The translations under genes were made by a program, and so were the position numbers. From Alphaproteobacteria bacterium (GTDB lineage Bacteria > Pseudomonadota > Alphaproteobacteria > Micavibrionales > UBA2020), in assembly GCA_028817795.1 (NCBI GenBank), contig JAPPOU010000057.1:775-64060 (forward strand): 63,286 bases of DNA. The letters run 5' to 3'. The notes under the pieces were generated by a model that saw nothing but the letters and a program-made list of their open reading frames with translations, did no database searches and was not told the DNA's origin. How positions within the stretch are numbered: the stretch's first letter is position 1; every line of letters starts with the position of its first letter. This document shows positions 7,922 to 54,992 of this stretch, piece after piece.

Positions 7922-8227
7922 CGTGTGCCTCAAAAGCTGCATGTGACAGGATGCGCCCTGCCGCCCTTTAGCCGGGCGTGGGGCTGATCCTTGGTGTCGT
8001 TGTTGAAAACGGTACGATTCCTACCATGATGCCGGGGGTGCGTCCAGCCGGGATTCTTTATTATTAACATAATATCTAGGAAAAAAACGGAATAGAGGCA
8101 TGATTTATCTGAATTTACTTGTTTTTCCTCTTTTTATGATGCTTGAGTTATGTTTATTTATTGTGATTTAATGCCACCTTTGATATATACATAACATTAA
8201 TAATTGAAAGAGAATGCAAGAATCGTC

Positions 8228-10046: not shown

Positions 10047-10057
10047 GGGCGCGTACC

Positions 10058-37658: not shown

Positions 37659-37800
37659 GACATACCTCCTTGAACGTTCTTGTTAAATATGGAGCGTATG
37701 CCGTAAAAGGCAAGTGGCAGGAAACCTTTTCATAAGCGGTTGATGCAAAAGGATGTATGTGCTAGTTTCGGCTATCTGTCAAAACCGGGATATTCATTGC

Positions 37801-38889
37801 ATGGCGCATAAACCAGACGACGATTCACAGCATGCGGGCGCAGCGGACGATAACGCGAAAAATGCGTTATCCCCGCAGAATGTGATGGGGCGTTTATCGG
37901 CAGCGTTTTGGAAGTCCGTTGAAAACTCGACCACCGGCAAGGCCCCGCCGACCACGGAAGCACCGGCCATGGAGGCCACGATGGCCAGCCGGAAATGGCG
38001 CCGAAACCTTTTTCAGGCCGCGCAGAAAAACGACGTTACAACGCTGCGCCAGCTTTTGCAAAACAAGAAAGAAGATATCAACAACACGGGCGGCAAGGGG
38101 CGAACGGCCCTGCATATCGCGGCCCGCGCCAATGCGCATGACGCGGTGCAAATGTTGCTGGAAAACGGGGCAGACCCATTGCTGCGGGATAAACCGGACC
38201 GTGGCCAGGGGCGGACCCCCTTGGAATTGGCCATGGGGTTTTCCGCGACAGAGTCTGCCGTTACGTTGATTGAGCACGGTGGATATACATCGGATATTAA
38301 AAACGAAATGGGCTGGAGCGTGCAGCATGTAGCTGCGGAAAAAGGGCAGGCAAAGGTTTTAAAGGCGCTCTCTGCGATTGGCGTCGATATGGATGCCCGC
38401 CTGCCGGACGGCACAACGCCGTTGTTATTGGCCGTGCGTTATCATCGCGTTGGGGCCGCGCAGGCGCTGTTGGATGATCGTCAGGCGGTTTTGAGCCTGA
38501 ATACGGCGTTTTCCACCAAAGACGGCCATCGCCGCACAGCCTTTCAAACGGCGGTAGCGCGCGGATTGACGGAGGTTGTGGGCAAAATGCTGGATGTCGG
38601 CGCCTTGCCGGCGCAGCCGGATGTCAAAGGCATTGTGCCGCTTGAGATCGCGCTTCACCAAGGCCATGTCGCGATGGTGGATATGTTGGTGCGCCGAGGT
38701 GCGGATGTGAACGTTATCAATGCGCAGGGCGAAAGCATGCTCTCATTGGCGCAGCGTCAGCAGGCATCGCATGAAGAGGGAAAGGGCTATGCTGAAAATG
38801 TGCGCTTGTTGGAAAAAGCGGGCGCGGCTCCGCAGCTTGGCAAACAGGTCTCTGTGATGCCGCGTGCCCCGAAAGGTCCGCGTCGATGA
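37801..38889 (+). CDS. ankyrin-repeat protein
   Basis: At least six ANK repeats (GRTALHIAARANAHDAVQMLLENGADP, GWSVQHVAAEKGQAKVLKALSAIGVD, and others). Start set at ATG 37801. Confidence 0.8.
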   Translation: MAHKPDDDSQHAGAADDNAKNALSPQNVMGRLSAAFWKSVENSTTGKAPPTTEAPAMEATMASRKWRRNLFQAAQKNDVTTLRQLLQNKKEDINNTGGKGRTALHIAARANAHDAVQMLLENGADPLLRDKPDRGQGRTPLELAMGFSATESAVTLIEHGGYTSDIKNEMGWSVQHVAAEKGQAKVLKALSAIGVDMDARLPDGTTPLLLAVRYHRVGAAQALLDDRQAVLSLNTAFSTKDGHRRTAFQTAVARGLTEVVGKMLDVGALPAQPDVKGIVPLEIALHQGHVAMVDMLVRRGADVNVINAQGESMLSLAQRQQASHEEGKGYAENVRLLEKAGAAPQLGKQVSVMPRAPKGPRR

Positions 38890-40001
38890 AAAAAAAGCGT
38901 GATGTTGAAATCAACAAGATCAAAACAGTCTTTGGTGAAAGCGCTGTTCCCGCGCCGGAAAAAATAAACGCTCCCATTGACGGGTGGCACAACACGTTTT
39001 TACACCGTTTAAGCGATTCTATTCATACGTCCGCTGCAGAAATACGCACTGCCGTTGAGATGGGGGCGGATGTGAATATCCAAAACAAATCCGGTGAAAC
39101 GCCCTTGATGCTGGCGATCAGCAAGGATAACGGGGATGTCGTGCGCGCGCTGTTGCAGCAGGGGGCCGATATTGTTGTGCCATCGGGCAAGAAAAACGAA
39201 CTGCCCTTTAATGCCGTTACGCAGGCGATTTGCGCCGGGAACGTGAAGATGCTGCAAATTGTGCTGGAAGAAGGTGGCGGCAGGTATGTCAATTACCAAG
39301 GCAATACGAAATGGCGTGAAGCGGATGGCATGTCAGGGGTAGCGCTGTTAGCGCGGGCCTATAAAACGCAAGGCATGCGTTTGGAAGAAGACAAGTATAT
39401 AAAAATGGCCCGCTTGCTTATTCAGGCAGGTGCATTTCTGGAAGGGGAGAGCGGGCCGAGTGATTTGACGCCGCTGATGCATGCCGCAACGGCGGGCAGT
39501 ACGGCGCTGGTGCACCTGATAATGGAATCGGGGGCTGATCTGAACTATCAGCATTCCAAAACGGGCCATACGATATTGCACCACATTGCGGATACGGAAT
39601 ATCATTTGATGGCAACGCCCTTAATTGCGCGTGGCGCACGTACGGATATTCGTGATCGCGAAGGCCGTTTACCGCTGCATATTGCGGCACGGGATGCCCG
39701 GTTATATATGATGAAGGCGTTGTTGCAACATAGCGCGGCAGATGTAAATGCGCGCGTTGTCGGCGGGCGTGAAGAAACGCCCCTGCATTTGGCGGCGCAG
39801 GCGAATAGCCTTATTTGCGCTGAAACCCTTCTTGAAAAAGGCGCCGATCCGGCGGCAACGGATTTGAGCGGCCATACGCCCAAGCAGCATGCCGACCCAA
39901 AGGCCGCTGTCTATGCCCCCCTTGCGCGGGCCGAGGATGCGGCGCTTCGCCGCCGTCATGATGAGGGGTATCACAAGGCGTATAAGCCGCCATCTCCGTG
40001 A
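38886..40001 (+). CDS. ankyrin-repeat protein
   Basis: ANK repeats (GETPLMLAISKDNGDVVRALLQQGAD, LTPLMHAATAGSTALVHLIMESGAD, ETPLHLAAQANSLICAETLLEKGADP). ATGA overlap with the upstream gene. Confidence 0.8.
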   Translation: MKKKRDVEINKIKTVFGESAVPAPEKINAPIDGWHNTFLHRLSDSIHTSAAEIRTAVEMGADVNIQNKSGETPLMLAISKDNGDVVRALLQQGADIVVPSGKKNELPFNAVTQAICAGNVKMLQIVLEEGGGRYVNYQGNTKWREADGMSGVALLARAYKTQGMRLEEDKYIKMARLLIQAGAFLEGESGPSDLTPLMHAATAGSTALVHLIMESGADLNYQHSKTGHTILHHIADTEYHLMATPLIARGARTDIRDREGRLPLHIAARDARLYMMKALLQHSAADVNARVVGGREETPLHLAAQANSLICAETLLEKGADPAATDLSGHTPKQHADPKAAVYAPLARAEDAALRRRHDEGYHKAYKPPSP

Positions 40002-40032
40002 AGTAAAATATGCATTGCAGAGAATAATGCGC

Positions 40033-40069
40033 AAAAAAAAGCCCCGCATAAATATTGCGGGGCTTTTTT
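40033..40069. terminator. bidirectional rho-independent terminator
   Basis: An A-run, gccccgc (40041-40047) pairing with gcggggc (40057-40063), then a T-run. Sits between the convergent ANK and Clp-like genes. Confidence 0.6.
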
Positions 40070-40091
40070 GCCGTCTACGGTTTCCCTTGCT

Positions 40092-42815
40092 TTAGAGGCT
40101 GGGGCCGTTTCTTCTTTTCTTTTGTTTCTTCTTGGCCGGTTGCGGCTTTGGCTTGTTCTCGTTGGCCGCAGGCTTGGTGGCTGGTGTTGCCGCTTTGACC
40201 TTTGGTGCAAAGCCTTTGTCGCTGTTATCAAGAACGATTTTAACTGTGCCGTGCTTTTCTTTCGCAGCTTCAACGGCAGCCTTGTTCTCGTCTTGCAAGA
40301 GCCATTTGCCAAGGGGATTTGCGATTTTCTCGCGGATGACCTTGCGCAGCGGGCGGGCGCCCATGGCGGGGTTATAACCGTCTTTGGCCAACTTGTCCTT
40401 CATGGCATCCGTCACTTCCAGTGAAACGCCGGACATGCCGGTTCCGGAGGCTTTGGACAGGCGGTCATTGACCTTGTCCACTTCGCGGTCAACCAGGTTG
40501 CGGATAACCTGCTGATCCAGCGGGACGAAGGTGACAAAGCCGCCAAGCTCTTCAATCCTGTTTATCATTTCAGGCTTGTTAAAGAACTTTTTGCGCGCTT
40601 TGGCGTAGTCTGCTTCAAGGTCGCGGGCCTGTGCGTCAGTATCCTTGCCTTCAAGGTTCGACAAGGCAGAGCCAAAGCCTGCGCCGCCGCCTTCCAGCGT
40701 TTTGGTGGCGTTGGCAGCACCCAGGTTCGTCGTCATCACGATGATGACGTTGTTGAACTGGACCGTCTTGCCTTGGTTGTCCGTCATTTTGCCGTCGTTC
40801 AACGGGGCCAAAAGGACGTTAAAGACATCAGGGTGCGCTTTTTCAATTTCATCCAGCAGCAGGATAGAATAGGGCCTGCGGCGGATTTTTTCGGTCAACG
40901 CGGGTTCGGCCGAATCAAAGCCGACATAGCCGGGAGGCGCCCCTGTCAGACGGGACACGGTGTGTTTCTCGCTATATTCCGCCATGTCGAGCTTAATCAG
41001 CGCATCTTCCGTGCCAAACAGGTGGCGGGCCAAAGCCTTGCAAAGCTCTGTCTTACCTGTACCTGTCGGGCCTTGCAGGACAAAACAGCCCCAGGGCTGG
41101 TTCGGATCCGTCAGGCCGCTGCGGGCACCGACGATGCCGTCGACAACCTGCTGGATACCGGGCTGGCCCAAAACTTCCTGCGGCAGCTTTTCTTCCATGA
41201 GGCGGAATTTCTCGCTGTCTTTTTTGGACAGGAAGTCTGCGGGCAGGTTGCTCATTTGCGCAACAGCGTCAATGACGTCTTGGCGGCTAATGACCGTTTC
41301 GTGACGGAAACGCGCCGATGCGGCCGCCATGTCGAGCACTTTTTCGCTCTTGCGGGGCTGGGCTTCGTTCGGGGCATAACGGTTGGTCATGTCGGTGATA
41401 TAGCCGAAATCGTCTTCGGTCAGGTCTTCTGTCAGGCCATGGTGCTCCTTAATCAGCGGCCATGCGCTGTGCAGGATCGCCAGTGTCGCGTCCCTGTCGG
41501 GCGGCAGCAGGGGCAGGCGTTCAAAACGGCTGGAGAGCGCGCCATCTTTTTCGATGTGCTTTTTGTACTCTTCGTCCGTGGTTGTACCCATCACAGAAAT
41601 GCCTTTGGCAGTCAGGAACGGCTTCATGATGTTGCCGGCATCCGTGCCGCCTTCGGCTTTGCCCGATGTGAGCTGCGAGTGGATTTCATCGATACCCAAA
41701 AGGATCTTGCGACCCTTCAGGTAGCCTTCGCGTTCTTTCAGGCCGTCGATCAGGGGCTTCAATTTTTCTTCAAACTGGCCACGGAATTTCGCGCCTGCGT
41801 TCATGGCCTGCAGGTCAAGCGACAGAACACGTGCGCCTTCCAGCGTTTCAGGAATGTTTTCGCCATTCACGATGCGCTGTGCAATGCCAGAGAACATGGC
41901 TGTTTTACCAACACCGGCTTCGCCCGTGAAGCACAGGCTTGCTTGCTTGCGGCGTGACAGGACTTTCAGGGCCTGATCCGTTTCAGCATCGCGGCCCACA
42001 ATGGGGTCCAGATTGCCAGCGGCGGCTTGGTCCGTTAAGTCTTCGCAGAACTGCTTGATAACGGATTCAATCGCCATGTCGGGCACGCGGTATTTCTTTT
42101 GCGGTTGCGTGCGGGTGCCGGCCTTGTTGAATGTTTTAGGCAGTTGTGGCTTATGGCCCGGTACAATCGGTGTATTGGGGCGCGGGCGTGGTGTCGTGTC
42201 CCCTCTTTTGGTAGGGCGGGGTTGTTGCTGGGGTTCAAACGGAACCGGCGGCTCGTTCAGCGCCTCAATATTCATGCGCGCAATGGCGGCGCGGCCAGAT
42301 GTATGCTGCGGCGGGAATGGCAGGTTGCCGATCACGTCTGAATCAATGCTGATGCGGCCTGCAGCGCTGCGGGCCACGCCGGGGTCATTGGCGTCGATTG
42401 TGTCGGTAAACGAAACGGGAAATTGGGAGACATCGATATCAACGTTCAGCACACGCGCAATGGAATCTGCCGTCAGGTTATAGTCAATGTTGATGTCGCC
42501 GTTGACCTTACTGCTAAAGGACATTTCGTATGTGACGGGCACACCCTTCAGGTTTTTGGGGGTGCCTGTGAAGTCTGTTTTGATCTGGAAAGCCATTGTG
42601 GTGTAACCAAAACCACCGCCCGGCAGCTTGCCGATTTCAGGCTGGTCCTCAAACGCAAAAATGGTGCTGTTGGGCTTCAGCGAGGGATTCGTTTCCGTTT
42701 CCGAAAAAGCGAGAATCTGTCGAGGCCTGCCATTGTCATAGCGTACAGCGTATTCGCGGTCGCCGTCAGCATCAACAAGATAAAGGTAGCCATGGTAGTT
42801 ATTATTATGTGCCAT
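40092..42815 (-). CDS. ClpA/ClpV-like double AAA+ ATPase with a non-canonical N-terminal domain
   Basis: D1: DPIVGRDAE, Walker A GEAGVGKT, Walker B LLGIDEIH. D2: Walker A GPTGTGKTE, Walker B ILLLDEIEKAHPDVFN, sensor MTTNLGA. No ClpB-type middle domain. The first 260 aa or so are unrelated to Clp_N. Lys-rich C-terminal tail. Confidence 0.9.
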   Translation of the reverse strand: MAHNNNYHGYLYLVDADGDREYAVRYDNGRPRQILAFSETETNPSLKPNSTIFAFEDQPEIGKLPGGGFGYTTMAFQIKTDFTGTPKNLKGVPVTYEMSFSSKVNGDINIDYNLTADSIARVLNVDIDVSQFPVSFTDTIDANDPGVARSAAGRISIDSDVIGNLPFPPQHTSGRAAIARMNIEALNEPPVPFEPQQQPRPTKRGDTTPRPRPNTPIVPGHKPQLPKTFNKAGTRTQPQKKYRVPDMAIESVIKQFCEDLTDQAAAGNLDPIVGRDAETDQALKVLSRRKQASLCFTGEAGVGKTAMFSGIAQRIVNGENIPETLEGARVLSLDLQAMNAGAKFRGQFEEKLKPLIDGLKEREGYLKGRKILLGIDEIHSQLTSGKAEGGTDAGNIMKPFLTAKGISVMGTTTDEEYKKHIEKDGALSSRFERLPLLPPDRDATLAILHSAWPLIKEHHGLTEDLTEDDFGYITDMTNRYAPNEAQPRKSEKVLDMAAASARFRHETVISRQDVIDAVAQMSNLPADFLSKKDSEKFRLMEEKLPQEVLGQPGIQQVVDGIVGARSGLTDPNQPWGCFVLQGPTGTGKTELCKALARHLFGTEDALIKLDMAEYSEKHTVSRLTGAPPGYVGFDSAEPALTEKIRRRPYSILLLDEIEKAHPDVFNVLLAPLNDGKMTDNQGKTVQFNNVIIVMTTNLGAANATKTLEGGGAGFGSALSNLEGKDTDAQARDLEADYAKARKKFFNKPEMINRIEELGGFVTFVPLDQQVIRNLVDREVDKVNDRLSKASGTGMSGVSLEVTDAMKDKLAKDGYNPAMGARPLRKVIREKIANPLGKWLLQDENKAAVEAAKEKHGTVKIVLDNSDKGFAPKVKAATPATKPAANENKPKPQPAKKKQKKRRNGPSL

Positions 42816-43049
42816 TTCTAAAGAATCTCCCTTTTACGGTGTCAAGTACGTTTACGTAAGGTAAAGAACCGTATAGGGGCGTGCAAGATAAAAATTGCTA
42901 TAAAAGGGAAAAACAGTACCGAAAAATACCCACTGAATATACATAATTAAAATATTGTTATGGATGTTTTAATGTTATGGCAATGTAGTAGCTGCTGCTG
43001 TCTGACGCATCTAATCTAGGTTCATTTATTTTTCGGATAGAATCACTTT

Positions 43050-43616
43050 TTACGCTTGGCTTGAAAGCGCTGTCAAAATTTTACTGTAGTGCAGGCCGGT
43101 AATCATTGTCCCGTTCACTTGTGCGTAAAAGGGGTTTTTGCCCCAGCAGGTGAACCCAGAGGCTTCAAATAACGTAATGGCACCGCGCTGCGTTTCGCGA
43201 ATATCCAAATGCAAAACCTGATACCCCATGGCTATGGCCAGTTTTTCGGCGGTGGCGACAAGCATCTGCCCGCAGCCCATGCGGCGGACGTGCGGCGCGA
43301 CGAACGTTGCGATCAGCGTGGCGGAAAAAGCCTGCGCTTCGTTGTGGCGGGTGGGTTCGACAAGCTGCGTTGCGCCACATACAGCGCCATCAACGCGAGA
43401 GATTAACAAGTGTCGTTCCGGCACGGCCAGCACGCCTTTCCAGTATCTTTCCAGCGTGTCGATGCCGGGGGATGTGACCCAGCCAAAACCGCCGCCGCCG
43501 TTAATGGTGGCTTCCGTGGCTTCGGCAAGATCGTGAAGGTCGTTGGACGACAGCGTATCGACAATATCGACGCTGACGTGTGGCAGGGCATTATTAAGTA
43601 GACGCATGGCTGTCAT
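43050..43616 (-). CDS. GNAT-family N-acetyltransferase
   Basis: Acetyl-CoA binding motif FVAPHVRRMGCGQMLV...AIAMGYQVLHLDI...AITLFEASGF. Confidence 0.8.
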   Translation of the reverse strand: MTAMRLLNNALPHVSVDIVDTLSSNDLHDLAEATEATINGGGGFGWVTSPGIDTLERYWKGVLAVPERHLLISRVDGAVCGATQLVEPTRHNEAQAFSATLIATFVAPHVRRMGCGQMLVATAEKLAIAMGYQVLHLDIRETQRGAITLFEASGFTCWGKNPFYAQVNGTMITGLHYSKILTALSSQA

Positions 43617-44365: not shown

Positions 44366-45253
44366 ATGGAAAAAAAGGTAACGGCGCTGATATGCGGTTT
44401 TGCAGCGATGTTGATGCTGGTCCTTCCGTGTCGTGCTGATGCCGCGCAGCTTCAGACATCGCAGAGCAAAGAGTCTGCCGTGCAGCGCGCGCGTAATCTT
44501 GACGTACCGCCCGGCCTGCGCCGTTTGGTCGGAGCAGGTGGCGATATTGAATATGCAGGGCAATACTATGGTCTGGATGCTTGGCGTATCATCGATAAAA
44601 ACAAAGAAGGGCCGCAGCGCGATAAATATGCTTACGTGACAAAAGAAGGCGGCATGCTGCTGGGTATTTTGACGCACCCTGACGGCACCGTTGTGACGGA
44701 TGTGAAACGGGCCGTGCATGGCAAAAATGTAGCGGGCCGTCAGGCAGCTTTACCCGGCGCAGCTTTTGCGCATTCGCAATCCGCGCGCACGGAAAAAGTC
44801 TATGCGCAGGTCGAAGCGGCGCATTGGGTGTCATTGGGGCAGCCGGATGCGCCTTATATTTACGCCTTTATTAATACGCATTGCGACCATTGCAAGGAGT
44901 ATTGGCGGGCGCTGGAAAACGCTGTCAGCCTTGGTCAATTGCAAGTGCGCCTTATTCCCTTTGGCCGCATGGGGCAGAACCGCCATGCAGGTGCCGCGCT
45001 TTTGGAGGCAAAAGATCCTTTGAAAGTGTGGTCTGATTTTGTGCGCGGCAATGAATCTGCATTGGCAGCGGTGCAGCCTTCGCAAAAATCATTGCAGAAC
45101 ATTGACCGGAACAGCGCTTTGTTCACGGATTGGAAGATTGCCAGTATTCCCTTTACGCTGTATCGCCGCCCGGCAGATGGGCGCATTTTGGCGGTGCAGG
45201 GCGTGCCGGACAATATTCTTGTGCTTTTGTCCGATTTGACGGGTAAGGGATAG
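44366..45253 (+). CDS. DsbC/TrbB-like periplasmic thiol-disulfide isomerase
   Basis: Signal peptide (MLMLVLPCRADA) and a thioredoxin-fold CxxC (NTHCDHCKEYW). Sits at the head of the T4BSS gene string. Confidence 0.7.
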   Translation: MEKKVTALICGFAAMLMLVLPCRADAAQLQTSQSKESAVQRARNLDVPPGLRRLVGAGGDIEYAGQYYGLDAWRIIDKNKEGPQRDKYAYVTKEGGMLLGILTHPDGTVVTDVKRAVHGKNVAGRQAALPGAAFAHSQSARTEKVYAQVEAAHWVSLGQPDAPYIYAFINTHCDHCKEYWRALENAVSLGQLQVRLIPFGRMGQNRHAGAALLEAKDPLKVWSDFVRGNESALAAVQPSQKSLQNIDRNSALFTDWKIASIPFTLYRRPADGRILAVQGVPDNILVLLSDLTGKG

Positions 45254-45263
45254 GAATAATCGC

Positions 45264-45719
45264 ATGATTTCAGCGCAAGCCCTTGCAGTATGTATTTTTA
45301 CGGCGGCGCAGACCTATGCCGTTCCTCCGTCCGTTCTTCTGGGGATTCTCAGCGTGGAGGGCGGCAGGCCCGGCCTTGCGGTGCGCAATACCAACGATAC
45401 GTATGATTTAGGCCCCATGCAGATCAATACGATATGGATTCCACAGTTGGCCCGGCATTGGCGGGTTAGCAAGGCCGAGGCCAAGCGTCTGGTGCGCGAC
45501 GAGCCTTGCGTGAACATTGGGGTGGGGGCCTGGATTTTGCGAACCAAGATCAATGACTCCGGCAGTTTGTATAACGGTATTGCGTGGTATCATTCCGCCA
45601 CGCCGCATATCGGGCAGCGCTATCGTAAAAAGGTTTTGGCCGCCATGAAAAAGTATCGGCAGGTGCGCCAGCCCAGTGATTTGCTGGCCGCCTATCCGCA
45701 GCCGCGCAAGCCCGGCTGA
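45264..45719 (+). CDS. lytic transglycosylase (SLT domain, VirB1/P19-like)
   Basis: LLGILSVEGG (catalytic Glu), YDLGPMQIN, and AWYHS-type motifs. Confidence 0.85.
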   Translation: MISAQALAVCIFTAAQTYAVPPSVLLGILSVEGGRPGLAVRNTNDTYDLGPMQINTIWIPQLARHWRVSKAEAKRLVRDEPCVNIGVGAWILRTKINDSGSLYNGIAWYHSATPHIGQRYRKKVLAAMKKYRQVRQPSDLLAAYPQPRKPG

Positions 45720-45829
45720 TCGTATGTTTCCAGATTATTTAAGCCGTCATCAGGGGCAACGGGGTTTAAACGCTTGATTCGCCCCCGGATAGCCCCTAGT
45801 ATCTGGTAAGACGATTTTCATCCGGGGGT

Positions 45830-46330
45830 ATGGATATTCTCATGAACAAAAAATCCTTGGCACTTGGCGTGATGCTGATTGCGGCGGTATCTGCCTGCGG
45901 TCCGATCACGAAACTGGACCAGCAGTTGGTGGCGGAACCTGATCCTGTGGCCCTGCGCCTTGCCAATGCGGTGGATCGCGCATCTGCCGCTTTGCAAACG
46001 CTGGCATCTGTTGAGCAAGCGCGTCATCCGGGCGTTGCTGTACAGGCTGTGCCCTATGCGCCGCAAGAATTGCGCCGGGCCGTGTCCGTGAAGTGGAATG
46101 GCCCCATTGAACCCATCACGCGCCGCATGGCGGATCGTGCGGGGTATCAAATGCATATCAATGGTGATGTGCCACCCGTGCCCGTTATTGTCAGCTTGCG
46201 TGCTGCTGAAAAATCAGTCGTCGAGGTGTTGCGCGATATTGGTTTGCAGGCCGGGCGTCGCGCCACGATTGCCGTCGACCCTGAGCGCCGCATTGTAGAG
46301 CTGAATTACGCACCCCTGTCAGGGGAGTAA
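45830..46330 (+). CDS. dotD: type IVB secretion lipoprotein DotD (TraH-like)
   Basis: Lipobox LIAAVSAC. The C-terminal domain VSVKWNGPIEPITRRMADRAGYQMHINGDVPPVPVIVSLRAAEKSVVEVLRDIGLQAGRRATIAVDPERRIVELNYA closely resembles my recollection of Legionella DotD. The start could be ATG 45842. Confidence 0.85.
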   Translation: MDILMNKKSLALGVMLIAAVSACGPITKLDQQLVAEPDPVALRLANAVDRASAALQTLASVEQARHPGVAVQAVPYAPQELRRAVSVKWNGPIEPITRRMADRAGYQMHINGDVPPVPVIVSLRAAEKSVVEVLRDIGLQAGRRATIAVDPERRIVELNYAPLSGE

Positions 46331-46334
46331 CTGA

Positions 46335-47501
46335 ATGACGTTGCCGCGATTGTCCTTTTTGTCTCTTTCGGCCCGCGCCGGTGTTGCAGTAGGCGTTGCG
46401 CTGTTGTTGTCAACGGCGCCGCAGGCCTGGGCGCAACAGAACGACTCTGCTTCGGTTGCGGCGCAGCAGCAGGCGCTGGCACAGATGCTGAGCGGTCAGG
46501 TGCCGCCGGCCCCGACGCTGTCAACAACGCGGGGACGTCAAGCACCAACGTCTTACTCCTTGCCCAAACTAACGGGCGGCGGATCGGGCGTGCTGACGCA
46601 AGATGAATTTGATATGGCGCTGGAGGACAGGGACAGCGCCCCCTCCAAAGCGTACAAGCTGTCACAGGAACGCAAGCGCCAGCGCGAGATCGAGCAACAC
46701 GGCAATAGCGACCTGCCCGAAGAAAACGAATATGACGCACCGCCGGGTCTTTTGGATTTGATGGTCATGGATCGTCATGAAGAATCTTTGGCGTTGGCCG
46801 ATGCGGCAGATGGCGACGCGCCGGATTCAGCATTGGACCTTAGGCGTGATGCGCAAAAAGAGGCGTCCTTGTCTTTTGGTGCGCGCGGCGGGTTGGCGCA
46901 TCGCAACTACGAGATCATGCAGCGCCTGCACGGGTTTGAAAACACGCTCGATAAAGTCTTTAATTTCCGCATGCTTTTGGTCAATACACCGTCAGGGCTG
47001 TTGATTGAGCCGCCGATTATCCGGGAGTCGCTTGATTCCATGGTGATTACGGCAGGCGGTAACGAAGCTGCTGTTGCGGACCGTGTGCTGGATATTAACA
47101 AGCAGGCAAAAATTGTATCCGCGCCGCGTGACTGGCGGGAATATTTGTTCCAGCCGTGGACATCCGAAGTGCCGCCACCGCCGCGCATTCTTTGGCCGGA
47201 AAATAATTTGGAGCGCGCACGCTGGAAAGACTGGGTCAAGCAAGGCTGGGAAGCTGGCGTGGCACAGGCAGATTCAATGTTCGAGGTTAACCTGAACAGG
47301 TTGACAGCGGATTATAACGGCATGGTGCGTTATCGCATGCTGTTGGCAGAGGGGATGGTGTCCCAACCCTATGCCATGCACGAGGATCGCGGGGTGACGG
47401 GCACAAAAACTGTCATGCGCGTTGGTGATCGCGCGCTCCGCATTACGGGACCGTCTCAATTTCTTGTAGAGTCTGATCTATGGAAGCCGGCAGACCGGTA
47501 A
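46335..47501 (+). CDS. dotC: type IVB secretion protein DotC (TraI-like)
   Basis: Signal peptide, then a C-terminal DotC-like core (FNFRMLLV...GLLIEPPII...RDWREYL...GW..G..QA). Lies between dotD and dotB. Confidence 0.75.
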   Translation: MTLPRLSFLSLSARAGVAVGVALLLSTAPQAWAQQNDSASVAAQQQALAQMLSGQVPPAPTLSTTRGRQAPTSYSLPKLTGGGSGVLTQDEFDMALEDRDSAPSKAYKLSQERKRQREIEQHGNSDLPEENEYDAPPGLLDLMVMDRHEESLALADAADGDAPDSALDLRRDAQKEASLSFGARGGLAHRNYEIMQRLHGFENTLDKVFNFRMLLVNTPSGLLIEPPIIRESLDSMVITAGGNEAAVADRVLDINKQAKIVSAPRDWREYLFQPWTSEVPPPPRILWPENNLERARWKDWVKQGWEAGVAQADSMFEVNLNRLTADYNGMVRYRMLLAEGMVSQPYAMHEDRGVTGTKTVMRVGDRALRITGPSQFLVESDLWKPADR

Positions 47502-48697
47502 GTCTTCTTAAAAAGGGTATCGACGACCTGAAAGAAACCTGGCCGGGCGAGCCGGACAGGTTTTTGGAAACGCACGTCGATCCGTTTTTGTTGTGGTGCG
47601 TGAAGCAGGGATCGTCCGATATCACCTTCCAAAGCTCGCGCCCCGTTTTTAACGAGATTCACGGCACGTTGTACCCCGGCACGTATCGTTCGCTGGATGC
47701 GGCGGATATGGCCTCGATCGTCACGCGCCTTTACGGGACGGAAGCGCTGGCCATTCTTGCGGGTGGCGCGGATATTGATATGTCGTACGAGGTCATGGTT
47801 GACCGCTTTAACCGCACACGCTTTCGCGTCAACATGACGGCGATTTTGACGGACGGGCGTGACGGCATCCAGATCACGATGCGGACGTTGCCCTCTGCGC
47901 CACCCACGATGAAGCAGTTGAATATCGAGCAGGAAATTATCGACGCCTGGCGTCCGCGTCAGGGGCTGGTATTGATTACGGGGCCGACCGGTTCGGGTAA
48001 GTCAACATTGCTGGCGGCAGGGAACCGCATGTTGATCGAAGACCCGCATGGGTGCGGTAAAATGCTGACCTATGAAGCGCCGATTGAATTCACTTACGAT
48101 TCCGTGCAAAGCCGCCGCAGTCTTGTGGCGCAGTCTGAAATTCCGCGCCATTTGCCCAGCTTTGCCGCCGGCGTGCGTAACGCGCTGCGGCGCAAACCTG
48201 AAATTATCCTGGTGGGCGAGGCGCGTGACCGGGAAACGATTTCCGCCGCGATTGAGGCGGGCCAAACGGGCCACTGCGTTTACGCCACGTGTCATACGAC
48301 GGGCGTTGCCGCAACAATCCGCCGGATGGTTTCGACCTTTGAGCCTTCGGAGCGAACGGAGCGTGCCTTTTCCCTGATGGAAACCATTCGCCTGATCGTG
48401 ACGCAGACGCTGGTGCCGAAAGTGGGCGGCGGGCGTGTCGCTTTACGTGAATATATGGAATTTTCAGAAGAGCGCCGTGAAGAGCTTCTCGATATGTCCT
48501 TTGAAAAATGGCCTGTTGAGCTGATGCGCATGGTGGAACAATACGGAAAAACAATGGAGGGGTCAGCGCGTGACGCCTTTAACGCGGGGTTAATAGAAAG
48601 ACGCTATTATCTGCTGTATGCAAAAGGGTCAAAGCTGAAAGAGGATGACCCGGCGGTGGCGCCGATTGCGCCAGAAGAAACAGCGCCCGCCCACTAG
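47480..48697 (+). CDS. dotB: type IVB secretion ATPase DotB (PilT/VirB11 superfamily)
   Basis: Walker A GPTGSGKST, Asp box IILVGEARD, His box TGHCVYATCHT. Overlaps the dotC end by 22 nt. Confidence 0.88.
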   Translation: MEAGRPVSLLKKGIDDLKETWPGEPDRFLETHVDPFLLWCVKQGSSDITFQSSRPVFNEIHGTLYPGTYRSLDAADMASIVTRLYGTEALAILAGGADIDMSYEVMVDRFNRTRFRVNMTAILTDGRDGIQITMRTLPSAPPTMKQLNIEQEIIDAWRPRQGLVLITGPTGSGKSTLLAAGNRMLIEDPHGCGKMLTYEAPIEFTYDSVQSRRSLVAQSEIPRHLPSFAAGVRNALRRKPEIILVGEARDRETISAAIEAGQTGHCVYATCHTTGVAATIRRMVSTFEPSERTERAFSLMETIRLIVTQTLVPKVGGGRVALREYMEFSEERREELLDMSFEKWPVELMRMVEQYGKTMEGSARDAFNAGLIERRYYLLYAKGSKLKEDDPAVAPIAPEETAPAH

Positions 48698-48728
48698 GGG
48701 ACGTTTTGCGGGGAAAAGGGGAGCGTAA

Positions 48729-49022
48729 ATGGCTAATCAGTACGAAGAGGCGGGCTGGCACTGGCGAAATTCCATGAAGCCTGTGCGGTTTTTTAATCTG
48801 GATGGCCGTGCCGGTTTTTTCGTGGTGGTGTTCATTATCCATGCCCGTTTGTACACGTTATGTTTGTTGCTGACGGTCTTTTTTGTATTATGGTTGCTTG
48901 AGCGGCGCGGACTTTCGTTTCCGGCGGCGTTGCGCTCCATAAGGGTCTGGATGGTCGGGCCGTATCGACCGGGGTTGATGCGCCTGCGCCGTGCGAAAAT
49001 GAAGGACACGGGATCGACTTGA
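48729..49022 (+). CDS. icmT: type IVB secretion protein IcmT (TraK-like)
   Basis: Small membrane protein. HWRNSMKPVRFFNLDGRAGFF...H.R...FF..W...RGLSFPAALRSIRVWMVGPYR matches the IcmT pattern as I remember it. Confidence 0.8.
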   Translation: MANQYEEAGWHWRNSMKPVRFFNLDGRAGFFVVVFIIHARLYTLCLLLTVFFVLWLLERRGLSFPAALRSIRVWMVGPYRPGLMRLRRAKMKDTGST

Positions 49023-49119
49023 TTCTCCGGCTGTTATCAGGCATATCTATAAAGCAAAGTAGTTGGCTTTTTTTGTGCCCTTTGGGTGCGGCACGCTTAT
49101 CAGGATCAAAGAGATAACC

Positions 49120-50484
49120 ATGGCATCTTCCTCAACCCGTTTGACTGCAGCTCTTTTGACCACGGCCTTGATTGCCGGGTTTTCTGTTTCCACGCACGCC
49201 GCGTTTGAGTGGCGCGGTCCGCTGGTGCCGCCTGAAATGCCGGCGCCACCCGCACAGGTCGAGGCACCCGCTGCCGCATCACCTGTTGTCGACGGCATGG
49301 GTGGGCTAGAGCCTGTTATCATGTGGGATAAAATTCAGGCACCCGTACCGGCGATGCCAGCTGTTCCGGCAGCGAATGTAGAGGCCTCTCCCGTTGTACA
49401 ACCTTCTGTTGCGGTTGACCCTGCTGACATGTTGTCCGGCTTTGGATCGGAACTGCCATTGGTTATTGCGCTTCGGCAGGTTGTGCCCGCCGAATATCAA
49501 ATGTCTTTTTCCACTGGCGTCAATCCCGGCACGGTCGTGTCATGGCAAGGCGGCAAGGCGTGGCAGGATGTTTTGTCTGACATGCTGGCACCACATGTTT
49601 TGTCATGGCGGGTTGAGGGGCAGACCGTGATCGTTGGTTACTTTGAACCCGCGCCGCATGTGCAGGAACAGGCCGCGGTTATGCCTGCAGCGCCGGTGCC
49701 GCAACAATCGCCCGCACCGATGCGTGACGTGGAAAATGTAGAAGCTGTACCTTTAACGCCGCCGCAGCCCGTGCCTGCGCAGGTAGTGCAAGGCAGTCCT
49801 GGCAAGACGCAAGACGCCACGATGACGCCCGGCCGCCGTATTCTTTTGGGGCGGGCTTCCCCCGTCGGTGTTCAGGTGTCTGCTTCCGCGCAGCAGCAAG
49901 AACAGCAGCAATTGCAAAAACAATTACAACAGGTGGAGATGCAAGAGCCTGTTCATATCCGGCGTACGCGCCCCTCGTCTTTGTTAGAGCGCTGGGGGCT
50001 TGTGAAGCCGAAAGACGCTGATCCGGCTGTGACGGTATCTGGCCCCGTTGATGCTGTTGCGGATGACGCAACAGACCCGGTTGCACCTCCTGTTTCACTG
50101 ACGGCGCCTGAAGGCGTTGCCGCGCAGGGTGAGGCATCGTTGGAGGGACAGGGCGAAGATGCTGCTGTAGATCTGGACGCATCTGAAATGGAAACGAAAA
50201 CATCTTCCTCTTCCGCAGACTCGCAATGGCAGGGTGGTGAGGGCCAGACCTTGCGCGCCCTTTTGGAAGAATGGTCTGATACTGCGAACGTAGAATTATA
50301 TTGGTCTATAGATTACGATTATCGTCTCGACCAAGATATTGCGTTGTCCGGTACCTATGATGAGGCTGTGAGCGCTGTGTTGGACAGATTTTCCGATGCG
50401 CGGCCTCAGCCCTATGGGCAGTTGCACAATTCCGGCGCAGATAAACGGGTTTTGGTTGTCAAATCCTATGACATATCAGGTTAA
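49120..50484 (+). CDS. exported protein with a TcpQ/PilL-like C-terminal domain
   Basis: Signal peptide (ALIAGFSVSTHA). N-terminal module LPLVIALRQVVPAEYQMSF...VVSWQGGKAWQDVL, a Pro/Gln-rich linker, and C-terminal WQGGEGQTLRALLEEWSDTANVELYWSIDYDYRL...GTYDEAVSAVLDRF, which is TcpQ_C-like. Confidence 0.65.
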   Translation: MASSSTRLTAALLTTALIAGFSVSTHAAFEWRGPLVPPEMPAPPAQVEAPAAASPVVDGMGGLEPVIMWDKIQAPVPAMPAVPAANVEASPVVQPSVAVDPADMLSGFGSELPLVIALRQVVPAEYQMSFSTGVNPGTVVSWQGGKAWQDVLSDMLAPHVLSWRVEGQTVIVGYFEPAPHVQEQAAVMPAAPVPQQSPAPMRDVENVEAVPLTPPQPVPAQVVQGSPGKTQDATMTPGRRILLGRASPVGVQVSASAQQQEQQQLQKQLQQVEMQEPVHIRRTRPSSLLERWGLVKPKDADPAVTVSGPVDAVADDATDPVAPPVSLTAPEGVAAQGEASLEGQGEDAAVDLDASEMETKTSSSSADSQWQGGEGQTLRALLEEWSDTANVELYWSIDYDYRLDQDIALSGTYDEAVSAVLDRFSDARPQPYGQLHNSGADKRVLVVKSYDISG

Positions 50485-50644
50485 GTTTTCGTAAATCTCT
50501 GATTTTCCTTTGAAAAAGGCGACTGGTGTTTCTAAATCTGTCGTATTTTAGGCAAATATGATACAATGAAAGGATGCAGCCGAGGCGGGTTTTGCGGCGC
50601 GGGAGTCGTATGGATTCGTGTGGCTTTTCAGGGGTGTTTTGGTC

Positions 50645-51973
50645 ATGCGCAGATTTGGCGGTTTTAAGCTTTTGTTTGTGGTTTTCGGGTTTTTTGCCCT
50701 GTTCACGCTTGGCTATACCGCAACCAGCGTTGTGACCTCCGACCAGGCGCAGGCGCAAATCCCCAGTTGGTGTTTTAACATGTCGTGTACCAGCCCGTTT
50801 ACGGGGGTGGCGGTTGAGCTTGGGATTATCATGGGCCGCACGTTTACAACGGGCATGTTCTACGTTGTAGGTTCGTTGTCCGTTTATTTTGCCGTGGCGA
50901 TGGCGTCATTTGATTTGCAGGTGATACAGGCCATCAGCGCAACCTTGAACAAATGGCTCGATTTCTGGAACACCATGTGGCGATACAACATGGAACCAGC
51001 CTTTCAGGATATGACGGACCAGTTGACGACCATGAATACCGATCAGGCCCGTGCCATCGGTAGCTTTGCGGACATGATGGATAAAAACCGTGCCATCCGC
51101 AAACTGCGGGAAGAACAGGTACGCGCGCACCGCGAGCTTAGCCCCGGCGAGAATGTATGCGTTGCGGCTTCGACCATGGGGGGGCTTGTGCAAGCCTCAA
51201 CGTTCTCGCGTACATATAACGCCTTGGCCCCACAGGATATGCTGCGTCGCCAGCATGTGGGTGGCGGTTCCGCGCAGGCGGATATGGCGGGCCGCGTAGC
51301 GCGTTATGCGACACGTTATTGCGATCCGGCGGAAAATGCGGGCATTACCCTATGTCCGGGCGGTCCTGCCGTGCCGGGCTTTATTGGGGCAGACCTGGAT
51401 GTCGCGGGGCGTGTTTTTGCAAGGGATACGATTGATATCCGTGATCCGAACGTGAAGCAGGCCGTTGATGATCTGGTGCAAAATATTGCAGAGCCGTTTG
51501 TTCCGGACCCTGTGCCGGAAATGTCCTTGACGGGGACAGGGGGCGCGGAGGCTTTCTTGCAGCGTCAAAGCCGTCAGGCGAAGAGGCAGGTGATCTACGA
51601 TAATCTTTATCACATTATTTCACGTCGTATTCCGGGGTCCGGATTGGAAGTTGGTACATACGTCAACGAGGTGCGGCTGGAGGCGGGCATGGACCCGGCG
51701 CTGCTGGTGAACAACCCCAGCCGTCATGAGGTTTTGGAGGTTATGGCGAATGAGCGTTACCGCACGGGTAAATATGCGGTGCGCATGATGACAGAGCCGG
51801 AACATGTTGAGCGTGAATTGGCGGTGCAAGAAGGCATCAAGAGCATGCAAATGGCCGATATGCTTGATTTGATGGATCGGTATTCTCTCTTGGTCGCGGC
51901 GCGCGTGGGTGACAGCATTAATAAAAGATATGGCCGTGTAAAACAGGGTCAGTATCAGGAGGTCGGGCAGTAG
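50645..51973 (+). CDS. secreted Cys-loop family protein, tandem paralog P1
   Basis: N-terminal hydrophobic signal or anchor. Motifs LDFWNTMWRYNMEPAFQDMTDQL, DQARAIGSF, YCDPAENAGITLC, IDIRDPNVKQAVDDLVQNIAEPFVPDPVPE. Confidence 0.7.
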   Translation: MRRFGGFKLLFVVFGFFALFTLGYTATSVVTSDQAQAQIPSWCFNMSCTSPFTGVAVELGIIMGRTFTTGMFYVVGSLSVYFAVAMASFDLQVIQAISATLNKWLDFWNTMWRYNMEPAFQDMTDQLTTMNTDQARAIGSFADMMDKNRAIRKLREEQVRAHRELSPGENVCVAASTMGGLVQASTFSRTYNALAPQDMLRRQHVGGGSAQADMAGRVARYATRYCDPAENAGITLCPGGPAVPGFIGADLDVAGRVFARDTIDIRDPNVKQAVDDLVQNIAEPFVPDPVPEMSLTGTGGAEAFLQRQSRQAKRQVIYDNLYHIISRRIPGSGLEVGTYVNEVRLEAGMDPALLVNNPSRHEVLEVMANERYRTGKYAVRMMTEPEHVERELAVQEGIKSMQMADMLDLMDRYSLLVAARVGDSINKRYGRVKQGQYQEVGQ

Positions 51974-51974
51974 C

Positions 51975-53492
51975 ATGAACGACGATAACAGCAAAGAGCA
52001 ACCGCGGCAGCGGCCCGCAGGCGTAATGCGCATGGGCGTTGCCGTTTTCCTGCTTGTGGCGTTCCTGTCCGGGTATGCGACGGCGCCTGTTATGAACATG
52101 CCCCCGGCTCTGGCGCAGCTTATGGATGACCCGTGGCTGATTGATGATGATTTGGGCATGCTGGGCACCGTTATTGCGGATTCAACAACGGTGCTGTCAA
52201 GTATTCCGACATGTGTTGCAACACCACCTGTCACTTATGGATGGCTTTGTGTTGCGCCATGTTCGACGAGTTTGTTGACACAACCTCTTTTAACATTGCT
52301 GCAGTCGCGCCTTGAATCGGCGGGAGATGATTTGCGCGTCTTTATATCGCAAAATATTGTCGACGGTATCGTCGCTGTTTTGTTAAACGGGATTAACCAA
52401 ACCGAGTTAAACCTGATCGATTGGTGGGATACGTTTTGGTATTATAACCTTCATCCTGCCATGCAAGACATGACGGAACAGTTCCAATTGTCGCTGGCCG
52501 ACCAAGTGCGTGCCATGGCGATGGCGGCAGATACGCAAATACAGAACGAAGCTGCAAAAATGCAAAGCAAGGCGGAAACGGCTGACGGCGCGATGCTGCC
52601 ATCTGAAAACGTTGCCGTCGTCGCGACAATGATTGGCGGGCAACAACGGCAGAGCGAGATTGCAGAAGCCGTGCGCCATGCGCAAGAACGGCGGACGCAA
52701 GATCGTGGCTTGAATATGGTGGGAACACCGGCGGCGCGGGATGGGGGACTGGCGGAAACGGAGCGCCATAACGATTATGACGCTCTTTTCTGTGATCCCG
52801 CTTCCAATAATGGCGTGAACAATTGCGCGACCACGCGTGTTTCGACAAATCCGGCCTTGCAAAATGCGGATACGCAGCCGACGCGTGTTATTATGAACCG
52901 GCTCACAATTAACGTTGATTCAGATGACGCGAACGGTGACGGCGTTGTTGATGATGCCGATGCTGACGGGCAACCTGATCTGGTCGAAGCCGTAGATGCG
53001 GCGATTGACAACATGCTGCCGCCAATAGAGCTGGACCCTATACCCGAAAAGATTTTGGAAGCTGCGCCGGGGCAAGAGCGTTATCTGGAGCGTCGTTCTT
53101 TGCTGGCGCGTGACGGCGCCATGCGCAGCGCAACGCGGTTGTCAACAAGCTGGCGCATGCCGGGAACCCAGATTGGCCAATGGGTCGATGAGCTCCGCCA
53201 GACCGCAGGCGTGCCGCCGGGCGATATTTCCAGTAACCCCAGTTATAGGGAAGTGATGCACGCCATGGTGGTGGATCGTTTTAATAACGGTAAATATGGC
53301 ATGAGCATGCTGGATAACAGTACTGTGGCGGAAAAAGAAAAGCTGGTGCTGAACAGCCTGACATTAATGCAGTTAAGGGATTATCACGAACTGTTGCAAA
53401 GGACGATCTTGACATTGGCGGTGCAAGTATCCTTGACGGCAGAGGAAATAGAGCGTTCACGTCCTGATATCATGCAGCGTATGCCGCAATAG
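51975..53492 (+). CDS. secreted Cys-loop family protein, tandem paralog P2
   Basis: Motifs IDWWDTFWYYNLHPAMQDMTEQF, DQVRAMAMA, FCDPASNNGVNNC, AVDAAIDNMLPPIELDPIPE. Starts 1 nt after the P1 stop. Confidence 0.7.
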   Translation: MNDDNSKEQPRQRPAGVMRMGVAVFLLVAFLSGYATAPVMNMPPALAQLMDDPWLIDDDLGMLGTVIADSTTVLSSIPTCVATPPVTYGWLCVAPCSTSLLTQPLLTLLQSRLESAGDDLRVFISQNIVDGIVAVLLNGINQTELNLIDWWDTFWYYNLHPAMQDMTEQFQLSLADQVRAMAMAADTQIQNEAAKMQSKAETADGAMLPSENVAVVATMIGGQQRQSEIAEAVRHAQERRTQDRGLNMVGTPAARDGGLAETERHNDYDALFCDPASNNGVNNCATTRVSTNPALQNADTQPTRVIMNRLTINVDSDDANGDGVVDDADADGQPDLVEAVDAAIDNMLPPIELDPIPEKILEAAPGQERYLERRSLLARDGAMRSATRLSTSWRMPGTQIGQWVDELRQTAGVPPGDISSNPSYREVMHAMVVDRFNNGKYGMSMLDNSTVAEKEKLVLNSLTLMQLRDYHELLQRTILTLAVQVSLTAEEIERSRPDIMQRMPQ

Positions 53493-54970: not shown

Positions 54971-54992
54971 GAGGAGGAAAGGAGTGAAGACA

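Follow-up and report, generated by a model that had tools for sequence, protein, structure and literature searches.

The 63,286-nucleotide stretch of DNA examined here (the window) comes from an alphaproteobacterium of the Micavibrionales (assembly GCA_028817795.1, contig JAPPOU010000057.1). On its minus strand, at 40092..42815, it carries a complete gene for a 907-amino-acid two-ring AAA+ protein of the Hsp100/Clp type. This Clp-like protein and its relatives constitute an undescribed Hsp100/Clp subclass that is found only in Micavibrio-like Alphaproteobacteria. The family is also genomically tied to a Dot/Icm-type, or type IVB, secretion system (T4BSS), which is an association and not proof. 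New features of the protein are its N-terminal domain (N-domain), a C-terminal tag, and a probable partnership with the T4BSS, whereas its AAA+ engine is familiar.

A separate Hsp100 family with a familiar AAA+ engine

The open reading frame (ORF) begins with ATG and ends with a stop codon at 40092-40094, and its product is matched by both Pfam and NCBIfam models. Pfam assigns a D1 AAA module, AAA_lid_9 (residues 441-536), AAA_2 (574-756, E = 3e-50), and ClpB_D2-small (766-845). Based on these matches, on motif alignment with reference proteins, and on the D1-D2 spacing, the first ring module and its lid (D1) occupy residues 246-536 (41208..42080, minus strand), and the second ring module with its D2-small domain (D2) occupies residues 537-846 (40278..41207, minus strand). 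Each motif was compared at the level of single residues with its counterparts in ClpA and ClpB of E. coli, in ClpK and ClpL, in several proteins of the ClpC type, and in two TssH proteins. D1 has a Walker A motif (GEAGVGKT, residue 298), a pore loop (KFRG, 343), a Walker B motif (LLGIDEIH, 372), and an arginine-finger region (SSRFE); the D1 'RR' is replaced by 'SR' in most family members, with the second arginine retained. D2 has Walker A (GPTGTGKT, 582), pore loop (GYVG, 629), Walker B (LLLDEIEKAH, 652), and sensor-2 (GARPLR, 819) motifs. All hallmarks of a class-I (two-ring) Hsp100 protein are present, namely two AAA+ modules with Walker A and B, pore loop, and sensor/arginine-finger residues, plus a C-terminal D2-small domain. 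A preliminary description of this DNA had judged both modules to be catalytically intact, and the comparison bears this out. Given the motif conservation and the precedent of ClpA, ClpB, ClpC, and ClpV, the protein would be expected to assemble into a hexamer and to thread proteins through its central pore at the expense of ATP.

The same description had reported that both a ClpB-type coiled-coil M-domain and the canonical Clp_N domain are absent, and we reach the same conclusion. The D1 lid and the D2 Walker A motif are separated by 141 residues, compared with 144 in E. coli ClpA, about 200 in ClpC, ClpK, and ClpL, and 240-271 in ClpB and ClpV (262 in E. coli ClpB), and therefore the protein lacks an M-domain. 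Pfam detects neither Clp_N (PF02861) nor UVR (PF02151) in the 907-residue protein, and PF02861 is present in 0 of about 80 family members, whereas the ClpC-type matches of the same search carry it. Because the M-domain and Clp_N are both missing, regulation by DnaK or by MecA-type partners in the known way is not to be expected.

Its earlier label of 'ClpA-like' is correct with respect to architecture and spacing. Like ClpA, the protein has two rings and no M-domain, with a loop at the position of the ClpA IGL loop. ClpA is also the sole reference class, whether as NCBIfam model or as PDB chains, that aligns to it in one continuous stretch (residues 235-841 for the model); the ClpB, ClpV, ClpK, and ClpG models break into two pieces. 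However, the NCBIfam bit scores fall well under the curated equivalog cutoffs for ClpA (498 versus 993 for TIGR02639 and 401 versus 1350 for NF008263), ClpV (449 versus 885), ClpK (413 versus 1900), and ClpG (395 versus 1900), and PADLOC yields generic AAA matches only. By sequence, the core is nearer to ClpB (436 bits) and ClpC (425 bits) than to E. coli ClpA (355 bits), with 35-37% identity to ClpB and ClpC, near-identical pore loops and Walker motifs, and 33% identity to ClpA. Those closest relatives differ in their accessory domains, as ClpB has a full-length coiled-coil M-domain, ClpC has a half-length version with UVR, and both carry Clp_N, whereas the family described here has neither M-domain nor Clp_N. 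The Clp_N double repeat through which ClpA binds ClpS is likewise missing, and no clpS gene adjoins the Clp-like gene in the window or at the related loci P0023, P0047, P0077, P0074, and P0065. Thus, the protein is ClpA-like in architecture only, and by sequence and phylogeny it is a branch of its own.

The limits of this branch are sharp. A search of 5.8 billion proteins returned about 80 clusters that match over 95-100% of their length at 46-61% identity, all with 850-950 residues, and members bear generic database names ('AAA domain-containing protein', 'ClpC', or similar). After these full-length homologs, scores drop from 782 to 447 bits, and beyond this point are Clp_N-bearing ClpC proteins that match the AAA+ core only. 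In a bootstrapped neighbor-joining tree built from 692 shared columns, the AAA+ cores of the family form their own clade, with 100% support for monophyly and for the split from ClpA, ClpB, ClpC, ClpK, ClpL, and ClpV references, and ClpA lies outside it. Identity to any reference in the tree is 28-37%. This tree is rough because of the method, its single ClpA reference, and its reference set drawn entirely from outside the Alphaproteobacteria. At the DNA level, a pattern for the family motif EM[VI]NRIEELGGF matches 29 loci in GTDB species genomes, and all 29 are metagenome-assembled genomes labeled Micavibrio sp., Rhodospirillales/Rhodospirillaceae, 'Bdellovibrionales', or Alphaproteobacteria. 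Rather than being widespread in genomes without a T4BSS or already named as a subclass, the architecture is confined to one Micavibrio-like lineage, is annotated generically, and occurs on contigs with dot/icm genes. Reviews of Hsp100 proteins list ClpA, ClpB, ClpC, ClpE, ClpL, ClpV, ClpK, and ClpG, and a family with the present N-domain is not among them. Literature searches on Micavibrio and Micavibrionales turned up no account of the protein, nor of a T4BSS in these bacteria.

The window lies on a chromosome, as it contains a dcw cluster that runs from mraW to ftsZ, and a plasmid or phage origin was rejected for this reason. Its G+C content of about 54% is similar to the 54.7% of Micavibrio aeruginosavorus. 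One 825-residue protein (P0069) has the N-terminal part of the family and is ClpB-like around the ClpP-loop region and at its C-terminus, and it may be an assembly chimera. This protein was left out of the family counts, and the motif and tag counts given below refer to 78 members.

Several known Hsp100 proteins show that swapping or adding an N-terminal domain can re-target function, as documented for ClpL, ClpG/ClpK, and ClpE (PMC11006417, PMC8129007, PMC13125188). Two of these, ClpG and ClpL, are autonomous disaggregases with unusual N-domains (PMC11006417, PMC8129007). By this precedent, and with a core nearest to those of ClpB and ClpC, the Clp-like protein could be a stand-alone stress disaggregase whose N-domain binds aggregates and that has no link to ClpP or to secretion. 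We consider this explanation very improbable. ClpG, ClpL, and ClpB all possess the M-domain that is missing here, and membership in the ClpB/ClpG-type disaggregases was rejected on this ground. More generally, ClpL, ClpG/ClpK, and ClpE retain an M-domain, belong to Firmicutes or to heat-resistance islands, and have N-domains unrelated to the present one; ClpK/ClpG combine an extra N1 domain with Clp_N and the M-domain. Near the reference ClpK locus there are genes for small heat shock proteins (sHSPs) and YfdX, whereas no such genes or other heat-resistance genes lie near the Clp-like gene, and a simple pattern search found no sigma-32-type promoter upstream of it in 22 loci. A disaggregase would also leave both the conserved tag and the T4BSS neighborhood unexplained.

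ClpV/TssH offers a conceptual parallel in that it is an Hsp100 protein encoded inside a secretion gene cluster, with a specialized N-domain that recognizes a component of the system. However, ClpV has a modified Clp_N, an M-domain, and no ClpP binding, whereas the Clp-like protein has an unrelated N-terminal fold, no M-domain, and a T4BSS as its neighbor. ClpV is also the most distant reference in the tree (28-31% identity). With this lowest similarity, and with no type VI secretion genes in the window or at related loci, membership in the ClpV group was rejected.

A novel N-domain and a shared C-terminal tag

Residues 1-190 (42246..42815, minus strand) make up a conserved, beta-rich N-domain. 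Its hallmarks are an initial YHGY.YLVDA..REYA.RY.NG motif, an FPP(H/Q)H motif around residues 167-171 (FPPHH in this protein), and a helix. D15, R20, Y22, E50, and D56 belong with FPPHH to its conserved surface. AlphaFold2, supplied with a 50-sequence alignment, predicts its structure very confidently (pLDDT 94.3, pTM 0.87) as a mainly beta core, with strands within residues 9-114, short extra strands, and three helices. Foldseek searches with this model returned nothing significant from the PDB (best E = 0.087, TM ≤ 0.24) or from BFVD (best E = 0.23). Sequence searches were equally barren, with no Pfam family recurring among 50 separate family N-domains, zero matches at E ≤ 10 for an N-domain profile against PDB sequences, and nothing in NCBIfam. 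An exhaustive hidden Markov model search of 1.84 billion representatives located the N-domain in 65 clusters only. Because there is no match in Pfam, PDB, or BFVD and the domain is confined to so few clusters, it is rare and new in sequence and, as modeled, in fold.

The N-domain is joined to D1 by a variable linker rich in Pro, Gln, Thr, and Lys (residues about 191-245; 42081..42245, minus strand), and 15 of the 59 residues from 187 to 245 are proline. Across the family, alignment shows a conserved N-domain and a highly conserved AAA+ core, and the linker between them is the least conserved part and has the most gaps. The linker is probably a disordered tether. By analogy with other Hsp100 proteins, an N-domain on such a tether may select a client or an adaptor. 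The preliminary description had regarded residues 1 to about 165 as a beta-rich sequence that could not be placed and that substitutes for the usual N-domain. The beta-rich character and the lack of a match to Clp_N or any other known domain both stand, and the domain extends to about residue 190, including the FPPHH motif and a helix. The linker, which had been estimated at about 95 residues, is actually about 55 residues long.

At the other end of the protein, residues from about 883 to 907 (40095..40169, minus strand) consist of an AANEN motif, with N-E-N at 885-887, followed by the tail KPKPQPAKKKQKKRRNGPSL. What had been noted as a poly-lysine tail is indeed basic, and it is part of a longer conserved tag composed of N-[DE]-[ND] followed by a Lys-, Arg-, and Pro-rich stretch of 11-26 residues, whose end is often G-P-x-L, L-K-P, or similar. 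This tag is present in 72 of the 78 family members, and the remaining six have near-variants.

Similar tags end other proteins as well, including ankyrin-repeat proteins at four loci (L014, L017, L028, and L024), two proteins with bilobed hydrophobic segments (L019), and a small membrane protein (L035). In the window, an RNase J-like metallo-beta-lactamase recognized by Pfam (56756..58375, plus strand), which bounds the conserved T4BSS block on its far side, ends in '..APVNDNTGRRPKIFDIGPK' (NDN plus basic residues), and its orthologs at L048 and L049 keep the related tail '..AN[TS]N.(K/R)RRPKIF..NPK'. Among 1,730 ORFs of at least 100 residues, a scan identified 43 with a tag (35 Clp-like and 8 others), compared with 2 in a shuffled-tail control. 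The tag is therefore portable and real, although it is not common in the sampled DNA.

The N-domain also occurs outside the Clp-like family. Five non-Clp proteins (P0125, P0127, P0137, P0121, and P0122) consist of one or two N-domains followed by a conserved region of about 85 residues that we call module X. The window contains three tandem small module X paralogs of 131-137 residues on the minus strand (28042-28437, 28438-28836, and 28836-29249), with the pattern F-N-F ... LGG.PPPL ... basic tail. It also contains three tandem ankyrin-repeat paralogs on the plus strand (8204-9178, 9171-10046, and 10043-10966) that end in module X followed by '..LLPKP(R/K)..'. All 11 copies of module X give a coherent alignment, in which F-N-F is invariant and is accompanied by a second Phe and by 'LGG.P.PL...K..LLKP'. 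Module X has no Pfam match, its AlphaFold2 model is of moderate quality (pLDDT 70), a fold search with this model returned nothing, and a profile search of a large database added only 4 small homologs.

The ankyrin-repeat C-termini, with module X followed by a basic tail, look like a two-part signal, and they resemble the ends of Bartonella effectors, in which a BID domain precedes a basic tail. A different ending, '..KP...R.K...GGGF[KS]L', is seen in small ankyrin proteins encoded between the Clp-like gene and dotD at three other loci (L048, 5420-6559; L049, 5143-6281; L024, 2317-3408).

Given these shared termini, one can imagine that the Clp-like protein is itself T4BSS cargo, injected into prey or host cells with the NDN-plus-basic tag as its translocation signal, there to unfold a target chosen by the N-domain. 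Nearly all members carry the tag, which sits in a disordered tail at the C-terminus. The tag recurs on ankyrin-repeat, bilobed-hydrophobic, and RNase J-like proteins, the last of these at the other edge of the T4BSS block, and the short N-domain proteins end in module X and a basic tail just as some ankyrin proteins do. Regardless, we judge this fate to be improbable. Effectors are usually patchy in distribution and fast-evolving, whereas the Clp-like gene is universal and single-copy with a highly conserved core, and a hexamer-forming protein of 907 residues would be awkward to export. The Dot/Icm translocation signals of Legionella are Glu-rich, unlike this tag, which might just as well serve for docking, as a degron, or for binding nucleic acid or membrane.

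The Dot/Icm-type gene neighborhood

A T4BSS block lies beside the Clp-like gene at 44366..50484 on the plus strand. It was identified from Pfam and NCBIfam matches and a small ORF, and it recurs in other genomes. Its genes encode DsbG-like (44366-45253), SLT (45264-45719), DotD (45830-46330), DotC/TraI (46335-47501), DotB (47480-48697), IcmT-like (about 48729-49022), and TcpQ-like (49063-50484) proteins. Four successive plus-strand genes without Pfam matches follow (50618-51973, 51975-53492, 53522-54970, and 54903-56411). Their products, of 450-505 residues, are mutual paralogs with 22-29% identity that occupy the same place after the TcpQ-like gene in other genomes, and they could represent either a core set of effectors or T4BSS components specific to this lineage. 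Reading upstream from the Clp-like gene, the order in the window is thus a GNAT acetyltransferase gene, a gene for a 157-residue protein, the block from the DsbG-like to the TcpQ-like gene, the four paralogs, and the RNase J-like gene.

On the downstream side, two ankyrin-repeat genes of effector type (37753-38889 and 38886-40001, plus strand; Pfam Ank) are convergent with the Clp-like gene. A hairpin at 40004-40097, between the ankyrin and Clp-like genes, gives sub-threshold Rfam matches only (Thr_leader and rli40) and is probably a bidirectional terminator. The window has at least six ankyrin-repeat genes in total (8204-10966, 37753-40001, and 58368-59483). At other loci, the position of the two convergent ankyrin genes is occupied by a DUF6782 gene, which recurs next to or near the Clp-like gene (L001, 12741-14114; L002, 12811-14304; L006, 16310-17224; L044, 6-1622; L046, 12142-13560).

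The arrangement is conserved in other genomes. In the usual block, the Clp-like gene stands at one edge and is accompanied by GNAT, ankyrin, DsbG-like, and SLT genes and by dotD-dotC-dotB. The same block, with dotD, dotC, and dotB within 10 kb, surrounds the Clp-like genes P0023, P0047, P0058, and P0011 and is found at two DotB-seeded loci on other contigs. In the rearranged locus P0029, the Clp-like gene is about 6 kb from genes for a DotL-like coupling protein and DotM. Overall, 8 sampled genomes have dot/icm genes no more than 10 kb away, and in 4 more (L017, L021, L024, and the deepest-branching P0079) DsbC-like and SLT genes appear at the locus edges within the same distance. By matching the exact sizes of the longest contigs between DotB homologs and Clp-family clusters, we obtained 17 pairs, which include P0077 and P0065. 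In sum, at least 21 family members are on the same contig as dot/icm genes, and no member was shown to lack dot/icm genes. Co-occurrence with dot/icm genes is thus borne out by neighboring genes and by shared contigs, as an association within one lineage.

A Dot/Icm-type system is widespread in the Micavibrio-like lineage, because more than 120 DotB clusters at 77-87% identity were recovered. The cultured M. aeruginosavorus strain ARL-13 (2,481,983 bp) is reported to lack type III and type IV secretion systems (PMC3189940), and our searches gave no Clp-family or DotB match on any contig of 2,481,983 bp, the size of this genome. These results are consistent with the joint absence of the Clp-like gene and dot/icm genes from M. 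aeruginosavorus. The recognized parts of Dot/Icm systems include the ATPases DotB, DotL, and DotO, with no Hsp100/Clp-type component (PMC11338181).

A possible unfoldase partner of the secretion system

Based on these genomic findings, we propose that the Clp-like protein is a cytoplasmic, T4BSS-associated unfoldase whose clients or partners belong to the Dot/Icm-type system, a proposal to which we give about an even chance. Dot/Icm substrates need to be unfolded to pass through the channel. The Clp-like protein would remain in the cytoplasm, would unfold T4BSS cargo or a T4BSS-associated protein, and would pass the unfolded cargo in an export-competent state to the coupling complex. Alternatively, it might clear unsecreted cargo, possibly together with ClpP by way of a Gly-rich hydrophobic loop.

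This loop, GGGAGFGS (residues 709-716; 40668..40691, minus strand), aligns with the IGL position of ClpA and the x-G-F position of ClpC. The family form 'G-M/I-G-F-G' resembles the 'G-V-G-F-G' of ClpC. A strict [LIVM]-G-[FL] tripeptide is present in 19 of the 78 members, a relaxed hydrophobic-small-hydrophobic version in 66, and a hydrophobic third residue in all 78. The tripeptide is AGF in the window protein, LAL, GSF, MEL, and ATF are frequent variants elsewhere, and the central glycine is gone in about two thirds of the members. Docking to ClpP seems possible for the family on the basis of these motifs, and the earlier caution that coupling to ClpP is uncertain was well placed.

The loop also raises the prospect that the Clp-like protein has nothing to do with secretion. 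It could be a lineage-specific housekeeping replacement or paralog of ClpA that is coupled to ClpP and acts on ordinary cytoplasmic substrates, perhaps marked by the GNAT enzyme, with its adjacency to the T4BSS being an inherited accident. The ClpA-type architecture, the hydrophobic tip of the loop, and the single-copy gene with its strongly conserved core are all compatible with such a role. Even the C-terminal tag has a counterpart there, as E. coli ClpA carries an intrinsic C-terminal degradation tag.

The gene for the GNAT acetyltransferase (43050..43616, minus strand; Pfam Acetyltransf_1, with a weak RimI-like match) gives this idea further substance. It lies directly upstream of the Clp-like gene on the same strand, and 16 of the 22 informative loci have a same-strand GNAT gene upstream at a distance of at most 2.5 kb, which makes it the most constant neighbor of the Clp-like gene. 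It is retained beside the Clp-like gene at P0065, where dot genes are more than 10 kb away. A functional pairing of the two proteins, for example through acetylation-dependent recognition, is conceivable from this linkage.

The Clp-like gene also has its own conserved upstream element (42845..42905, minus strand), which was recognized by aligning 14 orthologous upstream regions. In the window, it reads '..ATTTTTATCTTGC', about 22 nucleotides, and 'TACCTTACGTAAACG' (a perfect match at 42849-42861). The consensus is 'TTCTGTAATTT-N3-CTTG', about 22 nucleotides, and 'TACC-TTACGTAAACG', with a palindromic TTACGTAA core. The element is conserved across orthologous loci even though the encoded proteins are only 46-61% identical, and it has no match in Rfam. 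Judging from its conservation and position, it is likely to be a promoter/operator. Neither half is enriched elsewhere in the window, and the idea that the element marks a regulon shared with dot genes was rejected for this reason.

Despite these observations, we think a housekeeping role, although the strongest of the alternatives, is somewhat unlikely. The docking tripeptide has lost its central glycine in most members, and no clpS gene adjoins the Clp-like gene. If the T4BSS linkage were accidental, it would be unexpected to find the P0029 gene beside a different T4BSS operon, that of dotL and dotM. Furthermore, both the tag and the N-domain are shared with effector-type proteins.

The dotL/dotM rearrangement, the sharing of the tag, and the proteins in which the N-domain is fused to module X lead us to favor a role as a T4BSS-associated unfoldase. 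There are nonetheless substantial points that count against it. All carriers are related, and thus shared ancestry can explain much of the co-occurrence and synteny; genes for GNAT, HIT, DUF3592, and DUF6782 proteins are likewise syntenic with the Clp-like gene. The upstream element is specific to the Clp-like gene, with no enrichment around the window's dot genes. Three of about 16 sampled genomes (P0077, P0074, and P0065) show purely housekeeping surroundings, with no T4BSS genes within 10 kb. The related carriers, the gene-specific promoter, and these three non-adjacent cases are our reasons for caution regarding the T4BSS link. In addition, few ORFs outside the Clp family carry the tag in the DNA sampled (8, versus 2 when tails are shuffled), three of the four ankyrin cases are close orthologs, module X cannot be traced widely, and its fold gives no clue. 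The ClpP-type loop and the universal conservation of the gene as a single copy would be just as natural in a housekeeping protease, and to our knowledge no Clp-type ATPase has been linked to any type IV secretion system.

The preliminary description had ventured that the protein is an unfoldase dedicated to the neighboring secretion system, or is itself translocated. Synteny, same-contig co-occurrence, and a tag shared with effector-like proteins have strengthened this suggestion, all of them being genomic associations. In its boldest form, which we put forward only tentatively, the Clp-like protein would be the first dedicated Hsp100 protein of any type IV secretion system and would stand to the T4BSS as ClpV does to type VI secretion. 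Together, N-domain, tag, and module X would then constitute a previously unrecognized code that directs proteins to unfolding and export or to removal, and in an extreme version the unfoldase itself would be injected. We know of no dedicated unfoldase for any type IV system.

N-domains decide the targets of Hsp100 proteins, and each new one, as in ClpV, ClpG, ClpL, and ClpE, has revealed a new biological role. If our proposal is correct, the N-domain described here would belong to an unfoldase that serves the T4BSS of one lineage, and the tag might represent a new secretion or recognition signal. The gene neighborhood also brings into view an effector-translocating T4BSS, accompanied by many ankyrin proteins, in relatives of the predator Micavibrio, whose cultured species has no such system reported. 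Even if the link to the T4BSS proves to be accidental, the Clp-like protein would still represent a new subclass of Hsp100 proteins and a fold not seen before.

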